Origin: Clostridia bacterium
Lineage (GTDB): Bacteria; Bacillota; Clostridia; UMGS1883
Assembly: GCA_045594665.1 (NCBI GenBank)
Contig: JAZNYX010000062.1
Coordinates: 15,951 to 79,950 of the forward strand
Direction: 5' to 3'
Length of the DNA stretch: 64,000 bases
Shown here: positions 2,641-56,924 of the stretch, piece by piece
Layout: every line of letters starts with the position of its first letter
Position numbering within the stretch: position 1 is the stretch's first letter
Made by a program: the position numbers and the translations under genes
The notes under the pieces: model-generated
Seen by the model: only the letters and a program-made list of their open reading frames with translations
Told to the model about the DNA's origin: nothing
Database searches by the model: none

Positions 2641-2888
2641 TTTTATCTTTCCTCCTTTCAAAAATGCCTGATGTAGATAATTTTTGCCTATGGATCTTTT
2701 AATTTTTCTGAATTATATTTCAAATATTTGAAGTAATAATTCATTATACATACCTCCCAATTCAATTTAGGAAATTGCTGTATTTCCTTCATGGATAATA
2801 TATCATGAGATTCTATAAAAATCCATAGGAGAAAAGAGTACTAAAAAATTCCTACCCGAAACTTAACTGCTTAGGTAGGAATTTTTTG

Positions 2889-3776
2889 CTATTTAATCTT
2901 GTTTTTTGCTCTTTCATATATTTCGTCTGTGGTTGCATGAAACGGATGCTTTGTCATGTTTTTTTGTTTTTTATTTTTGCAGTTTTGATACTCATCGTAA
3001 TCCAGACCAAATTTTTTACATATTCTCTGTTCTTCGTTTGCACGACTTGTTTCAGCAATAGTTTTTATTCCGGGAATATTATTAATTTCCGCATCAACAA
3101 AGCTAAACATACGCTCATCATTGGATAACTCAGTGGCGTGATAACAGAATTCATTAAACCGTTCTTCTGCTACGTTTTCAAATAAAGCAATGCTTTTCTT
3201 TATATTTTGCATTATTTCTTCAAAAAGCCTGATTTTATCACTTTCATAGAGATACTCCCAACATATAGTTTGATCGTCTTCATCAGTCCTATCTAAAACA
3301 AGAATTTTCATATATGTCTTGAATAAATCTAAAAAGTACCTCTCTTCATAGTATTTTCGTAAAATCGGATAACGAATTTTTTTAATTATGTTTTCCTTTA
3401 AGGTTAAAAACTCTTCGTCTTTTACATATGCTTTTACAAAATCAAACAGGTTCTGAAGTTCTTCTATATAATTCAAGTAATCACTATGATCTAAATTTTC
3501 CCCTTTTCTTATTTTTTTAAATAAAGCAGATTGTTCTTTGTCAAGTAATAGCATAATATAATTTTTTTGGGAAACATTTGCTTCAAACTCGTATTTTCCA
3601 CTTTCATTTTTCAAAAAAGAAAGATTATCAAGACCCAAGCAATTACAAGCACTGATAAGCTTCTTGCGCAAATATTTATGTCTCTCTTCAGCTCCCGCAG
3701 TATATTTATGTTCTTTTTTGTCTTCTGCAGTATATTTCTTCTCAGCATATTCATCAAAAATATCATTAAGCGTCAT
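2889..3776 (-). CDS. hypothetical protein (295 aa), first gene of the cassette
   Basis: Long ORF, Lys/Glu-rich and predicted helical. GGGGTGG lies 5 nt upstream of the ATG at 3776, with an alternative GTG at 3785. No family recognised. Confidence 0.5.
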   Translation of the reverse strand: MTLNDIFDEYAEKKYTAEDKKEHKYTAGAEERHKYLRKKLISACNCLGLDNLSFLKNESGKYEFEANVSQKNYIMLLLDKEQSALFKKIRKGENLDHSDYLNYIEELQNLFDFVKAYVKDEEFLTLKENIIKKIRYPILRKYYEERYFLDLFKTYMKILVLDRTDEDDQTICWEYLYESDKIRLFEEIMQNIKKSIALFENVAEERFNEFCYHATELSNDERMFSFVDAEINNIPGIKTIAETSRANEEQRICKKFGLDYDEYQNCKNKKQKNMTKHPFHATTDEIYERAKNKIK

Positions 3777-31722: not shown

Positions 31723-31728
31723 TACTGA

Positions 31729-31752
31729 GCGAAGCAAAAAAACCTCGGATTA
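31729..31752. repeat. direct repeat copy 1 (terminator arm GCGAAGCAAAAAAACCTCGGATTA)
   Basis: Matches 32381-32407 apart from a 3-nt indel (AAT). Flanks four-helix cassette 1. Confidence 0.75.
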
Positions 31753-31780
31753 TGAGTTGTACTCTAAAGGACAGTAAGAA

Positions 31781-31802
31781 GGGGCTGTAGCGGTACAGCC
31801 CC
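31781..31802 (-). terminator. stem-loop after four-helix-bundle gene 1
   Basis: GGGGCTGTA-N4-TACAGCCCC, 8 nt downstream of the stop. The U-tract is weak. Confidence 0.45.
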
Positions 31803-31809
31803 TCAAGTG

Positions 31810-32166
31810 TTATTTGGATTTAACTGTTTTTAGTGATGAGATCAGCATTCTGCGAATGGCACCACATTCATTTTGTGTCTTCTTATATTTATCTTCTTTG
31901 ATACAATCTGTTTCAAAAAGCAATTCTAACCAATATTCTGTTTCATAACATTCTTTTTGTGCTATCTCAAGTTTTGATATAAAATCATTTTTGCTTTGGG
32001 CATATTGTGCTTCGTGAATATTCGCACCTATAGAAGTAGCGGAACGAAGTAATTGATTTGCTAAAACAGCCTCCTTATGACTTGCTTTAATTTCTCGGCA
32101 CAGAAAAATTACATCTTTAGCAAATTGTTTTGATTTATCTCTTAAAACGCTGTCTGCCACTTGCAT
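31810..32166 (-). CDS. four-helix-bundle protein (23S rRNA intervening-sequence protein family)
   Basis: LLRSATSIGANIHEAQYAQSKNDFISKLEIAQKECYETEYWLELL is the family signature. ATG at 32166 has AGAGGTG upstream; the track start at 32253 runs into the repeat array. Confidence 0.85.
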   Translation of the reverse strand: MQVADSVLRDKSKQFAKDVIFLCREIKASHKEAVLANQLLRSATSIGANIHEAQYAQSKNDFISKLEIAQKECYETEYWLELLFETDCIKEDKYKKTQNECGAIRRMLISSLKTVKSK

Positions 32167-32179
32167 CACCTCTATAAAT

Positions 32180-32208
32180 ATTATACTGCAATACCGGCAG
32201 TTTTTCAA
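32180..32208 (-). promoter_or_regulatory. candidate promoter TTGAAA-N17-TATAAT for four-helix gene 1
   Basis: Minus-strand TTGAAA (32208-32203) and TATAAT (32185-32180). Same hexamers as the paralogue promoter at 51152-51179, with N17 here versus N16 there. Confidence 0.5.
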
Positions 32209-32216
32209 GTGATATT

Positions 32217-32370
32217 CTGTACTCCGTACAGAGTGGTATTTTTGATGAATCAAAAGTGGTATTAAAACCTACGGTTTTAGTGGTATTTTATTCGCCCATA
32301 AACTGCCGCAGGCAATACCACTTGCACAGCAAATACCACTGCGAAGCAATACCACTCGCCTTACAGGCGA
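32217..32370 (-). repeat. motif/hairpin array: 3 x GTGGTATT then 3 x AATACCAC, with palindromic mini-hairpins as most spacers
   Basis: GTGGTATT at 32233, 32256, 32280 and AATACCAC at 32314, 32332, 32348. Mini-palindromes: CTGTAC-TCC-GTACAG, TTTGAT-GA-ATCAAA, AAAACC-TAC-GGTTTT, TGCC-GCA-GGCA, TTGC-ACA-GCAA, TGC-GAA-GCA, TCGCC-TTACA-GGCGA. The central 26-nt spacer is only partly palindromic. Confidence 0.8.
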
Positions 32371-32375
32371 ATAAA

Positions 32376-32433
32376 ACTTAGCGAAGCAATAAAAAAACCT
32401 CGGATTAACCGAGGTTTTTTATTGCTTCGCTAA
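32376..32433. terminator. 27-bp perfect hairpin; the right arm is the last 27 nt of the TSCPD gene region
   Basis: CTTAGCGAAGCAATAAAAAAACCTCGG-ATTA-ACCGAGGTTTTTTATTGCTTCGCTAAG. The left arm plus loop form direct repeat copy 2 (32381-32407). Confidence 0.7.
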
Positions 32434-32662
32434 GTGCCCTTGCAACCTGATCGGGACAGCTGGTGCCTCTGCCGTTACAGTCGATACCTTTCATCCTTTC
32501 GATTGCGTCCTGAGCCTTCATTCCTTTAAGGAGCATGGCAATTCCGCTTGTATTGCCGCTGCAGCCCCCTACAATTCTTATATCGTTTATCGTCCCGTCG
32601 GGGGCAAGGTCAATAACGGTTTTCCTTGAACAAACCCCTCGGTTTATGTGTTCGCTTATCAT
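32405..32662 (-). CDS. TSCPD-domain protein (TIGR03905-like)
   Basis: 85 aa with GGCSGNTSGIAMLLKGM and GTSCPDQ motifs. Confidence 0.75.
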   Translation of the reverse strand: MISEHINRGVCSRKTVIDLAPDGTINDIRIVGGCSGNTSGIAMLLKGMKAQDAIERMKGIDCNGRGTSCPDQVARALSEAIKNLG

Positions 32663-50941: not shown

Positions 50942-50979
50942 GCAAAAAGAGCAATCACAAAAGTGATTGCTCTTTTTGC
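50942..50979 (+). terminator. intrinsic terminator after tRNA-Tyr
   Basis: AAAAGAGCAATCAC-AAAA-GTGATTGCTCTTTT. Confidence 0.75.
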
Positions 50980-50983
50980 AACT

Positions 50984-51150
50984 AAATCCGTCTTGCGACG
51001 GAAGAAATCCACCAGTGGTGGATGAAATCTGCTTCGCAGATGAAATCGCCTTCGGCGGATAAAAAGACGGATTTAATTTCATCCGAGCAGAGCAAGGATT
51101 TCATCCAAACTTGTTTGGATTTCATCGTGAACAAAGTGAACGATTTCATT
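50984..51150 (+). repeat. motif/hairpin array: 3 x GA(W)GAAATC then 4 x GATTTCAT, with mini-hairpin spacers
   Basis: Forward copies at 51001, 51021, 51039; inverted copies at 51070 (degenerate), 51097, 51118, 51142. Spacers: TCCGTC-TTGC-GACGGA, ATCCACC-AGT-GGTGGAT, ATCTGC-TTC-GCAGAT, CGCC-TTC-GGCG, ATCCAAAC-TT-GTTTGGAT. Confidence 0.8.
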
Positions 51151-51151
51151 A

Positions 51152-51179
51152 TTGAAATATTTTGTATTTATGATATAAT
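51152..51179 (+). promoter_or_regulatory. candidate promoter TTGAAA-N16-(TG)ATATAAT for four-helix gene 2
   Basis: TTGAAA at 51152-51157, TG at 51171-51172, TATAAT at 51174-51179. Confidence 0.5.
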
Positions 51180-51197: not shown

Positions 51198-51548
51198 ATG
51201 AAAGAAAATAAATTAGCGGAGATTTCTATGGATTTTGCCGTGGAAATACTAAAAATGTGTGATAATATAAAAGGGCATTATTCTATTACTAACCAATTAG
51301 AACGAAGCGCAACAAGTATCGGTGCCAATATCAGAGAAGCAAAGTATGCACATAGTAAACCTGATTTCATATCAAAGCTTCAAATATCATTAAAAGAATG
51401 CTATGAAACGGAATATTGGCTTGAACTTATGCACAGAGCAGAAATATTACCTGATGTTTCATCACTTATGCATAACTGTGGAGTCATCCGCAAATTGCTC
51501 ATCTCCTCCATCAACACCGCCAAGCAGAACTCCGACAAATCAAAATAA
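51198..51548 (+). CDS. four-helix-bundle protein (23S rRNA intervening-sequence protein family), paralogue of 31810..32166
   Basis: QLERSATSIGANIREAKYAHSKPDFISKLQISLKECYETEYWLELM. ATG at 51198 with GAGGTG upstream. Confidence 0.85.
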   Translation: MKENKLAEISMDFAVEILKMCDNIKGHYSITNQLERSATSIGANIREAKYAHSKPDFISKLQISLKECYETEYWLELMHRAEILPDVSSLMHNCGVIRKLLISSINTAKQNSDKSK

Positions 51549-56418: not shown

Positions 56419-56924
56419 AAAGTAAAACGCAAGCTGTAATTACACAACTTGCGTTAAAAATCCTCAAAAAACGACAATCCGCCTTAAAAAACGGAAAATC
56501 GGGACGTCGGGCATACAGAGTCTATATAGCAATAATACTTTTACTACTCTTATTGACCATTTCACAAGTTTGCGTAATACGCTTCGGTTATAACTTATAA
56601 AACTGAGCTTCTAACTCAATCAATAATGGCGGAAATCCGCCAATCGGCAGTGGACCCGGCTGTCCGTATGGCCTTGACTTCATTTTGAAGTGGTCCTAAA
56701 ATATTTGCTTTGAAGACTCCGATTGAAATTCTTTGAATTTTCCCATCGTCTTAACCTGCTTTTTTTATTATACTACCTATAGGTAGGGGTATGTCAAGTC
56801 TTTTTTGAATTTTTAGCACGTTTTTTTGCGTCATTTTTAATTTTTCTATTGCCTTTTTTTGCGAAAACGTATAAAATTATATAATAGCGGTGTATGCCGT
56901 TTTTAAGGAAGGAATTGATTGATA

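Follow-up and report, generated by a model that had tools for sequence, protein, structure and literature searches.

Forward and inverted heptad arrays beside four-helix-bundle genes in gut Clostridia: a module of a small insertion cassette that contains the Gut-1 RNA motif

The window analysed here is a stretch of 64,000 nucleotides (nt) from a Clostridia bacterium (GenBank assembly GCA_045594665.1, contig JAZNYX010000062.1, positions 15,951 to 79,950, forward strand). At two places in it, 32209-32376 and 50979-51151, a motif of 7-9 nt alternates with mini-hairpins of unrelated sequence, forward copies coming before inverted ones. Both arrays run right up to the -35 element of a sigma-70 promoter (11/12 match) that serves a gene for a four-helix-bundle (4HB) protein of family PF05635. 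The array is a conserved non-coding module of a small insertion cassette common in gut Clostridia. The cassette lands at intrinsic-terminator hairpins, and its cargo is most often the 4HB gene (PF05635, Avd-like). Along the sense strand of the cargo gene, the module consists of four to five heptad copies with hairpins, a centre that pairs to the start, and four to five inverted copies; the inverted half usually ends against the -35 of the cargo promoter. Half of the array is an already catalogued orphan RNA motif, Gut-1. The feature is real, non-random and strongly conserved, and its function is what we infer below.

Two arrays and the genes beside them

The gene-sense direction is the minus strand at cassette 1 and the plus strand at cassette 2. 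With F for the forward and R for the inverted half, the arrays, promoters and genes are as follows.

31810 to 32166, minus strand: first 4HB gene (PF05635 / TIGR02436), probable start GTG at 32160
32180 to 32208, minus strand: sigma-70-type promoter of the first 4HB gene, TTGAAA-17-TATAAT, 11/12 match, its -35 abutting the last R motif
32209 to 32286, minus strand: inverted (R) half of cassette 1, ATACCAC x3 and ATATCAC with three longer AT-rich hairpins between
32286 to 32296, minus strand: centre segment of cassette 1, GGCGAATAAAA in gene sense, which pairs with TTTTATTCGCC at 32366-32376 as helix P0 and competes with hairpin H1
32304 to 32376, minus strand: forward (F) half of cassette 1, a Gut-1-like half array with an Rfam match, whose hairpins covary in 41 relatives
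50942 to 50979, plus strand: terminator hairpin of a tRNA pair, directly upstream of cassette 2
50979 to 51057, plus strand: forward half of cassette 2, motif (G)ATGAAATC, hairpins at 50987-51002, 51009-21, 51029-39 and 51047-57
51064 to 51075, plus strand: centre segment of cassette 2, AAGACGGATTTA, which pairs with TAAATCCGTCTT at 50983-50994 (P0 equivalent)
51070 to 51151, plus strand: inverted half of cassette 2, GATTTCAT(C) x4, with one clean hairpin (51105-18) and two degenerate ones
51152 to 51179, plus strand: promoter of the second 4HB gene, TTGAAA-16-TATAAT with TG
51198 to 51548, plus strand: second 4HB gene, 50% identical to the first

Read on the plus strand, the array of cassette 1 is made up of these parts.

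32209-16: copy GTGATATT
32216-32: hairpin
32233-40: copy GTGGTATT
32240-55: hairpin
32256-62: GTGGTAT
32263-79: hairpin
32280-86: GTGGTAT
32287-32314: centre, ending in the hairpin TGCC-GCA-GGCA (32304-14)
32315-21, 32333-39 and 32349-55: ATACCAC
32322-32 and 32340-48: hairpins
32356-70: hairpin TCGCC-TTACA-GGCGA
32209 (GTGATAT) and 32371-77 (ATAAAAC): degenerate fourth copies at the outer edges

In gene sense, cassette 1 begins with GTTTTAT (F0), hairpin H1 (TCGCC-TGTAA-GGCGA) and three copies of GTGGTAT, between which lie the hairpins H2 and H3. The centre follows, consisting of hairpin Hc (TGCC-TGC-GGCA), GTTTATGG and GGCGAATAAAA. Three units of ATACCAC plus a hairpin and a final ATATCAC then lead directly into TTGAAA-17-TATAAT, a ribosome-binding site (RBS) and the open reading frame (ORF). 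An 11-nt long-range inverted repeat joins the centre to the start (32286-96 with 32366-76) and competes with the outermost hairpin (32356-70). The equivalent pairing in cassette 2 competes with the hairpin 50987-51002, and the architecture is that of cassette 1 in unrelated sequence. The two hairpins of cassette 2 that lie on the promoter side are degenerate.

The grammar of these arrays is a non-random feature. A k-mer scan for at least three forward and at least three inverted copies returned just two sites in the 64 kb, and none in 50 Markov shuffles. An earlier note on this DNA had described the grammar at both cassettes and had held that the architecture stays constant as motif and hairpin sequences change, and both statements stand, at the two cassettes and at related loci alike. 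Its count of three forward and three inverted copies was correct and left out the outer degenerate copy at each edge; its account of the array likewise holds and overlooked the long-range complementarity of centre and start.

The two 4HB proteins match PF05635 (23S_rRNA_IVP) with E = 2.7e-28 and 2.1e-23 and TIGR02436 with 112 and 97 bits; against NF033474 (Avd) the score is 17.5 bits, for a cut-off of 80. Among solved structures the closest is 2RLD, which has five chains. Another relative, Xcc0516, is likewise a pentamer ('five four-helix bundles'), and PF05635 and the Avd protein of diversity-generating retroelements (DGRs) are homologous. A dimeric protein, as the earlier note had proposed, finds no support in these pentameric relatives. 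Outside DGRs, PF05635 is described as functionally uncharacterised.

The promoter of cassette 1 is kept in most relatives. A consensus scan found no promoter for the array itself on either strand, nor a divergent one at the 4HB promoter; a central candidate, TTGCCT-18/20-TAAAAT, has poor spacing.

Conservation, structure and identity with Gut-1

The first 4HB gene has at least 8000 close relatives among the matches listed, mostly in metagenome-assembled genomes of Clostridia. Near-identical 4HB proteins occur in unrelated gene contexts, each with the same leader of about 215 nt that comprises array and promoter. A sample of one genome per species gave 80 4HB loci (Acutalibacteraceae, Oscillospiraceae, Christensenellaceae and others), of which 76 have sufficient upstream sequence. 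At least three properly spaced copies in both orientations are present at 65 of these 76 loci and at least two at 75 of them. Shuffled flanks never contain more than one copy, and 0/76 reach the array criterion.

The heptad is uniform within one array and differs between protein clades. Its class follows the clade of the 4HB protein: GTnnTAT belongs to the cassette 1 clade, (G/A)TGAAAT to the cassette 2 clade, and GTGAAGT, GCTAAAT or ATGAATTG to the remaining clades. Two orthogonal pairs of motif and protein thus coexist in the window. In three loci (L045, L046, L080; L numbers denote related loci) the array stands directly before the RBS. In three others (L054, L058, L071), which had been taken for forward-only arrays, the inverted half was found just downstream of the 4HB stop codon, and the array halves flank the ORF. 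Because of these positions, before the RBS or around the ORF, the array would be transcribed with the gene in all six. The orientation of the upstream neighbour (46 co-oriented, 23 opposite) came from crude ORF calls, proved unreliable and was not used.

The forward half of cassette 2 is a match to the Rfam family Gut-1 (RF01706) at 50979-51051 on the plus strand, with 57.4 bits (the gathering score is 50). In cassette 1 this half matches below that threshold (32310-32379, minus strand, 41.9 bits), and the inverted half of cassette 2 matches weakly on the minus strand (51071-51151, 30.1 bits). Loci related to cassette 1 reach 51-78 bits, and arrays of the cassette 1 clade have three covarying hairpins separated by a repeated heptamer. 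In the scan of related loci, no other Rfam family matched in the remainder of the element. Gut-1 is an orphan non-coding RNA motif described from the human gut metagenome only, with three hairpins and four copies of a GUGAAAU-type heptamer between them (Weinberg et al. 2010, PMC2864571). Like the window arrays, it combines hairpins with GUGAAAU-type heptamers in gut Clostridia-type sequences, and many related loci pass its threshold. The unmodelled flanks of the original Stockholm alignment contain a conserved centre and inverted AUAUCAC copies (PMC2864571), so that the full architecture was already present, though undescribed, in the data of 2010. Absent from the published description are the inverted half, the long-range helix, the variation of the motif, the link to 4HB genes and the mobility. 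Literature searches (Gut-1, TIGR02436, heptanucleotide/STRR, terminator-loop insertions) found no prior description of an association between array and PF05635; the full architecture, the mobility, the tie to PF05635 and the heptads as a family-wide principle seem not to have been described before.

The structure of the array is under selection. The consensus structure of 41 arrays from the cassette 1 clade has 97.3% of its cells paired. Double compensatory changes affect 24 of 37 pairs, compared with 12.6 in shuffles (0/500 reach 24) and 7-11 in controls with slid partners; the covariation score is 0.344, and controls do not exceed 0.072. RNAalifold picks the long-range helix P0 over the local hairpin H1. 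In P0, 98.7% of the cells are paired, with swaps among CG, AU and UA and with G.U pairs, and equivalents of unrelated sequence occur in every clade examined (W2, L060, L074, L080). The variable middle positions of the heptad (GTnnTAT / ATAnnAC) correlate throughout the array (F2 and F3 with R1-R3) and not by mirror position. As an argument specific to a branched F:R fold, mirror pairing in a set register (forward copy i, inverted copy j) was therefore rejected for want of register-specific covariation, and a common reader fits the array-wide correlation better than fixed F:R pairs do.

The earlier note can be taken up again at this point. It had tied the array to the adjacent 4HB gene, had traced no known pattern in it, and had offered further arrays beside other family members and covariation as tests of its proposals. 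The tie is confirmed as a genomic association by the 76 loci, where further arrays are the rule; the hairpins and P0 covary strongly; and the difference in motif between the two cassettes tracks the clade of the protein. The forward halves do have a known pattern, that of Gut-1, and the multi-branched fold of forward with inverted copies is unsupported in its fixed-register version.

The halves represent a single oriented module and its inverted copy, and either strand presents the same array pattern. In gene sense, the loops of the forward half have the form T(N)NC (TTC 131, TAC 42, TGC 22; also TTAC, TTGC, TTTC), and those of the inverted half are mostly G(N)NA (GCAA 36, GTAA 31, GAA 30, and others). 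This pattern recurs in other clades, and counts of wobbles and mismatches, though small, point the same way. Since the halves are copies of one module, the strand of the array cannot be called. The forward-half loops had been considered as UUCG tetraloops, which would be a sign of sense RNA; they are C-UUC-G triloops, equal to d(GCGAAGC) on the opposite strand.

Heptads also surround PF05635 genes far from Clostridia. Among the distant genes examined, 11 of 11 are surrounded by 7-nt repeats that are unrelated in sequence and occur in forward and inverted orientation. They belong to Nostoc, Aulosira, Planktothrix, Euhalothece, Treponema, Bernardetia, Chondrinema, Chlorohelix and Monoglobus and extend the arrangement to Cyanobacteria, Spirochaetes, Bacteroidota and Chloroflexota. 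A count of heptamers with one mismatch against shuffled flanks was too noisy for the short cyanobacterial arrays, and exact tandem arrays were used. In Nostoc, the gene lies between (AATTCGC)x4 and (GCGAATT)x4; in Nostoc and Aulosira, it also lies between (AAAATTC)x4 and (GAATTTT)x4-5. Bernardetia carries (TTAGTGA)x16 ahead of the gene and copies of TCACTAA behind it; in Treponema, about 40 GTGAAAG-like units followed by (CTCTCCG)x8 precede the gene, and x12 follows it; Euhalothece has (TCACTGG)x12 past the gene. The flanking is similar in Planktothrix, Chondrinema, Chlorohelix and Monoglobus. Heptads around plasmid-borne PF05635 genes of other phyla lack spacer hairpins. What the phyla share is a cassette-specific 7-nt unit, present several times and in both orientations beside a 4HB gene. 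On plasmids of Planktothrix, Monoglobus, Chlorohelix and Chondrinema (L239, L241, L242, L243), the gene and its heptads lie inside defence or transport operons, with the contexts drmD-4HB-MmeI, hsdS-4HB-hsdR, helicase-4HB-methylase and RND adaptor-4HB-RND permease.

Insertion at terminator hairpins

Four genomes (L229-L232) with a TSCPD protein 86-94% identical to that of the window share its synteny (SpoIIIA genes, Asp23 and TSCPD, convergent with MTHFS, Rpe and RsgA) and lack the cassette. At these empty sites the bidirectional terminator alone lies between TSCPD and MTHFS, and the terminator arm is present once. Against the closest of them, L229, the window has 624 extra bases (31752-32375) and a target duplication of 28-32 bp (about 30). 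The ends of the insertion are the following.

31724 to 31751, minus strand: downstream copy of the duplicated terminator 3' arm, beside the MTHFS stop codon
31752 to 31809, minus strand: tail of cassette 1, its own terminator hairpin (31781-31802) and then the right-end motif ACTGTCCTTTAGAGTAC, common to related elements
32376 to 32404, minus strand: upstream copy of the duplicated target, the 3' arm and T-run of the TSCPD/MTHFS bidirectional terminator, a direct repeat with 31724-31751

Together with 32409-32435, the upstream copy makes up the complete TSCPD terminator; the gene keeps a full terminator because the insertion duplicated the descending arm and the T-run. The final 27 nt of the TSCPD coding sequence are the 5' arm of this long stem (32405-32435), with the stop codon in the loop, and in L229 the convergent MTHFS ORF extends into the 3' arm. 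The empty sites came from homologue look-ups; exact-protein look-ups gave only the rearranged L108, and nothing for MTHFS. In L108 (500-620), an identical TSCPD protein is followed by a shorter terminator and a different downstream gene, which means that the locus has been rearranged between close relatives.

Flanking duplications are found elsewhere, of 25 nt in L044 and of 44-47 nt, covering whole terminators, in L060, L074 and L075. L060 also has, downstream of one cassette (3390-3560), the tRNA terminator a second time and, behind it, a truncated, gene-less array of the other motif class (ATGAAATC type), which suggests repeated insertions at the same terminator. In L080 the duplication is an exact one of 75 nt and consists of the forward half array. 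The forward half (~75 nt) is repeated there on either side of the centre, inverted half and 4HB gene (2815-3430), in the order geneA-TAA-F-(centre-R-4HB-TAA)-F-RBS-geneB. This unit has no internal promoter, and the array would thus be part of the operon transcript.

The element of many relatives is inserted between the arms of a host terminator. From the left flank to just past the right end, 21 of 90 elements show an exact inverted repeat of 12 nt or more, compared with 1.8% of controls with mismatched flanks; at 14 nt or more, the figures are 15 of 90 and 0.2%. The relatives that split terminators have terminal inverted repeats of 15-17 nt (ACTTCyCATAAGGA / GTGTTCTTAAGGACAC), and their complementary ends extend the split stem of the host terminator. 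The left terminal repeat of these relatives consists of a hairpin and a T-run, and by its sequence it would replace the disrupted host terminator. Cassette 1 has kept the right-end motif and lacks the left terminal repeat, and cassette 2 lies downstream of an intact terminator. No transposase was found in or beside any of the elements examined.

The array does not always travel with a 4HB gene. A metagenome scan for a centre with two inverted copies yielded 78 true arrays, 62 of them informative and distinct, and a 4HB gene follows 22 of these 62 (35%). The others are gene-less or precede other small genes. The same array and promoter can be followed by a DMP19-like gene (PF14300, E = 3e-12) or a gene for a MazG-like pyrophosphohydrolase (L116, L117, L135, L162, L198; L143). 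The earlier note was right to connect array and 4HB gene, and it overlooked both the mobile nature of the insertion and the absence of this gene from most arrays elsewhere. Gene-less elements measure about 360 nt, with the arm of the host terminator about 140 nt past the last motif. Such copies (L115, L136, L147, L158, L159, L171, L172, L177, L222) lie between the arms of different host terminators and consist of a left hairpin, the array, and a tail of about 140 nt that has its own terminator-like hairpin and ends in ...ACTGTCCTTAGGAAAC. On viral contigs, one of 19 pattern matches is a real array and the others are due to chance; PHROGs and PADLOC returned no match, and a phage origin was rejected.

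Possible roles of the arrays

In the reading that we tentatively favour, a folded single strand displays the arrays as cassette-specific heptad units for recognition and pairing, to which the pentameric 4HB protein of the same cassette probably binds. The functional form would be a folded single strand, most simply RNA from read-through or operon transcription. Extrusion of the spacer hairpins would bring the heptads side by side at the hairpin bases, and the folded Clostridial array would then be topologically equivalent to the contiguous tandem heptads of other phyla (e.g. cyanobacteria). This equivalence would fail for B-form double-stranded DNA (dsDNA), on which the spacings are irregular (16-26 bp). 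The row of identical heptads would form a recognition surface for an oligomeric partner, the best candidate being the cognate pentameric 4HB protein, acting in cis or, on gene-less copies, in trans. The inverted set may provide the same sites on the other strand, or it may pair with the forward set in competition with the protein. Autoregulation or handling of the cassette RNA would be the likely consequence; a role in propagation of the cassette is possible and has less in its favour. Identical repeats, clade-specific motif classes and two orthogonal pairs in one genome point to a recognition element read by an oligomer, and such a partner is plausible because 4HB relatives are pentameric and PF05635 is homologous to Avd. 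Avd reportedly binds nucleic acid.

Several points weigh against this reading. That any PF05635 protein would bind a specific sequence is something we infer. The correlation of motif with clade could reflect linkage, array and gene being inherited together. With just 22 of the 62 informative arrays of the metagenome scan preceding a 4HB gene, and the remainder gene-less or followed by DMP19-like or MazG-like genes, the protein would have to act in trans. Most arrays precede the cargo promoter and follow a terminator-like hairpin, and since an array promoter was found on neither strand, transcription of the array depends on read-through. A single sense RNA is not obviously in need of two true inverted copies of a module.

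The main alternative, which we consider somewhat unlikely, is a purely structural RNA that resembles the intervening sequences (IVSs) of rRNA genes. The heptad sets would be the arms of a quasi-continuous duplex of 21-36 bp with the side hairpins extruded, needing no specific reader protein, and the stem would loop the cassette out of host transcripts, as an RNase III-cut structure or as a bidirectional insulator, and so make the insertion harmless. F/R complementarity is indeed the sole feature common to all phyla, the motif sequence being free, and the arms flank the ORF as in an intervening sequence at L054, L058 and L071 and in cyanobacteria. The complementary ends that extend a split host stem also fit, as does the strand symmetry of the module, which is expected if it is transcribed from both sides between convergent genes; PF05635 ORFs, moreover, are known from rRNA IVSs that RNase III excises. 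A stem, however, needs neither identical 7-nt repeats nor cassette-specific motifs, and covariation tied to a register was not found between the F and R copies. RNase III acts poorly on helices of 7-9 bp broken up by four-way junctions, and the minimum-free-energy fold of cassette 1 is only partly of the F:R-stem type. Less likely again is an RNA antagonist, which we consider highly improbable: an array RNA that sequesters the 4HB oligomer as a sponge, in the way of CsrB with CsrA, or as a type III antitoxin-like RNA, in the way of ToxI with ToxN, the two forming an addictive, mobile pair that diversifies in specificity. A constant motif among variable hairpins is the grammar of protein-sponge RNAs, motif and protein classes are cognate and orthogonal within one genome, and gene-less arrays are frequent, as orphan antitoxins are. 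Yet PADLOC and PHROGs gave no match, PF05635 has no known toxicity or nuclease motif, the 7-nt repeats contrast with the processed units of 34-45 nt in type III systems, and the consensus scan found no promoter belonging to the array.

Mobility at the level of DNA is an unlikely explanation of the arrays, though mobility of the cassette itself is evident. The arrays would be subterminal binding sites or single-strand signals for a transposase or recombinase encoded elsewhere (e.g. a hairpin-targeting enzyme of the IS1182 type) or for the replication machinery, and the 4HB gene merely the commonest passenger. Empty sites set against a 624-bp insert with its duplicated terminator arm, further flanking duplications of 25-75 nt, the excess of split host terminators over controls, terminal inverted repeats in relatives, gene-less copies resembling miniature inverted-repeat transposable elements (MITEs), and swaps of cargo all agree with it. 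The symmetry of the inverted modules resembles transposon ends, and IS1272 is a precedent for the targeting of terminator hairpins. The arrays, however, are internal and one-sided, the true ends being separate inverted repeats, and cassette 1 has a perfect array without a left terminal repeat. Compensatory changes that preserve hairpins of arbitrary sequence are unexpected for dsDNA binding sites, and a transposase gene was found neither within nor beside any element. A more ambitious form of the pentamer reading appears quite unlikely to us. It would unite PF05635 genes and cassette-specific heptad arrays in one phylum-spanning class of insertion cassettes, of the same kind as rRNA intervening sequences. 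The pentamer would read its own heptads on a folded single strand. By this means the cassette would enter hairpin loops in terminators, rRNA helices or operon spacers, perhaps aided by a reverse transcriptase as in the case of Avd, or would be excised harmlessly from host transcripts; gene-less arrays would be non-autonomous copies served in trans.

Known systems share parts of this picture. An rRNA IVS with a PF05635 ORF carries the same protein family, as both window genes do (PF05635/TIGR02436). Like relatives of the cassettes, it lies between the arms of a host RNA hairpin and extends the stem with complementary ends; in some of these relatives the two repeat arms enclose the ORF. The host hairpin of the cassettes, in contrast, is an intrinsic terminator and not rRNA helix 25 or 45, and in the window both arms stand upstream of the gene; the window contains no 23S or 16S rRNA gene, and the cassettes are flanked by protein and tRNA genes. 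The Avd of DGRs is a homologous pentameric four-helix bundle that acts on a structured RNA beside its own gene, and yet no reverse transcriptase, template repeat or variable repeat lies near the window cassettes. The IS1182 family (IS1272 / TnSha1) and MITEs insert at terminator hairpins with little primary-sequence specificity and have terminal inverted repeats, short gene-less copies and passenger genes. With regard to a MITE-like non-autonomous transposon, relatives have terminal repeats of 15-17 nt, duplications vary in length (25-75 nt), contexts are many and different, and cassette 1 lacks the left repeat. IS1272 deletes part of the hairpin without duplication, whereas the cassettes duplicate 25-47 nt of the target hairpin; no transposase was identified for them.

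TRAP sites (trp leader), CsrB/RsmZ and ToxI resemble the arrays in having a short constant motif between variable spacers or hairpins that is read by a ring or oligomer. Their partner protein is demonstrated, however, and here a candidate, and they have no inverted second set of motifs. The operators of the omega repressor (inc18 plasmids) and the cyanobacterial heptanucleotide repeats of the short tandemly repeated repetitive (STRR) type also combine direct and inverted 7-bp units beside promoters. Units of clade 2 and of Bernardetia (TATCACT, AATCACT) fit the WATCACW consensus. Omega is a ribbon-helix-helix dimer on contiguous dsDNA heptads, whereas the cassette units have hairpins between them and those of other taxa show no sequence relationship; the likeness is probably a coincidence. 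A CRISPR array, with direct repeats of about 23-50 nt and unique spacers, was rejected because the repeats are of 7-9 nt in both orientations, the 'spacers' are palindromic and no CRISPR family reached threshold. Integron attC sites and REP-BIME elements were rejected in view of multiple unrelated hairpins with a constant flank, where attC has one imperfect hairpin with R''/L''-L'/R' boxes and REP a hairpin conserved in sequence, and in view of the lack of an integrase or RAYT in the listed 5-kb flanks. A ToxIN-like type III toxin-antitoxin system was likewise set aside, with its different repeat type, a PF05635 protein in place of an endoribonuclease toxin and no match in PADLOC.

Gut-1 has been an orphan motif since 2010, and for PF05635 ('23S rRNA intervening sequence protein'), a very large family of which structures have been solved, no function is known beyond the Avd of DGRs. 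Joining them turns two unexplained objects into one testable system, with forward and inverted heptad arrays accompanying a PF05635 gene in at least five phyla. It also raises the question of whether a pentamer reads its own heptads and so makes elements of the intervening-sequence type move or stay harmless. In genomes of gut Clostridia, the cassettes commonly give rise to structural variation at the ends of genes, and this source goes unannotated.

Some minor observations concern the sequence downstream of the 4HB gene. In one sub-clade (L034, L035, L038, L040, L041, L043 and L026), a conserved ORF of 86 amino acids is translationally coupled after the 4HB gene; its product (MNGYGFKCEHLFY...HYCPNCGNKL) resembles a double zinc ribbon, with weak Pfam zinc-ribbon matches alone. 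A two-hairpin element (GGGTTTGGGCTTAGCCC...GCATTTGTACATACAAATGCGATGCTGGTTC), for which no Rfam family match was found, is conserved in the first ~60 nt after the 4HB stop in one sub-clade (L012, L019, L021, L023, L025, L027, L029, L031, L032, L037). In L114 and L206 it directly follows the cassette promoter, as though the ORF had been precisely removed. Unrelated to the arrays, the window has at 56644-56696, on the minus strand, a match to the Rfam family SpF59_sRNA (ldcC RNA, RF02440) with 71.6 bits for a gathering score of 37.2.

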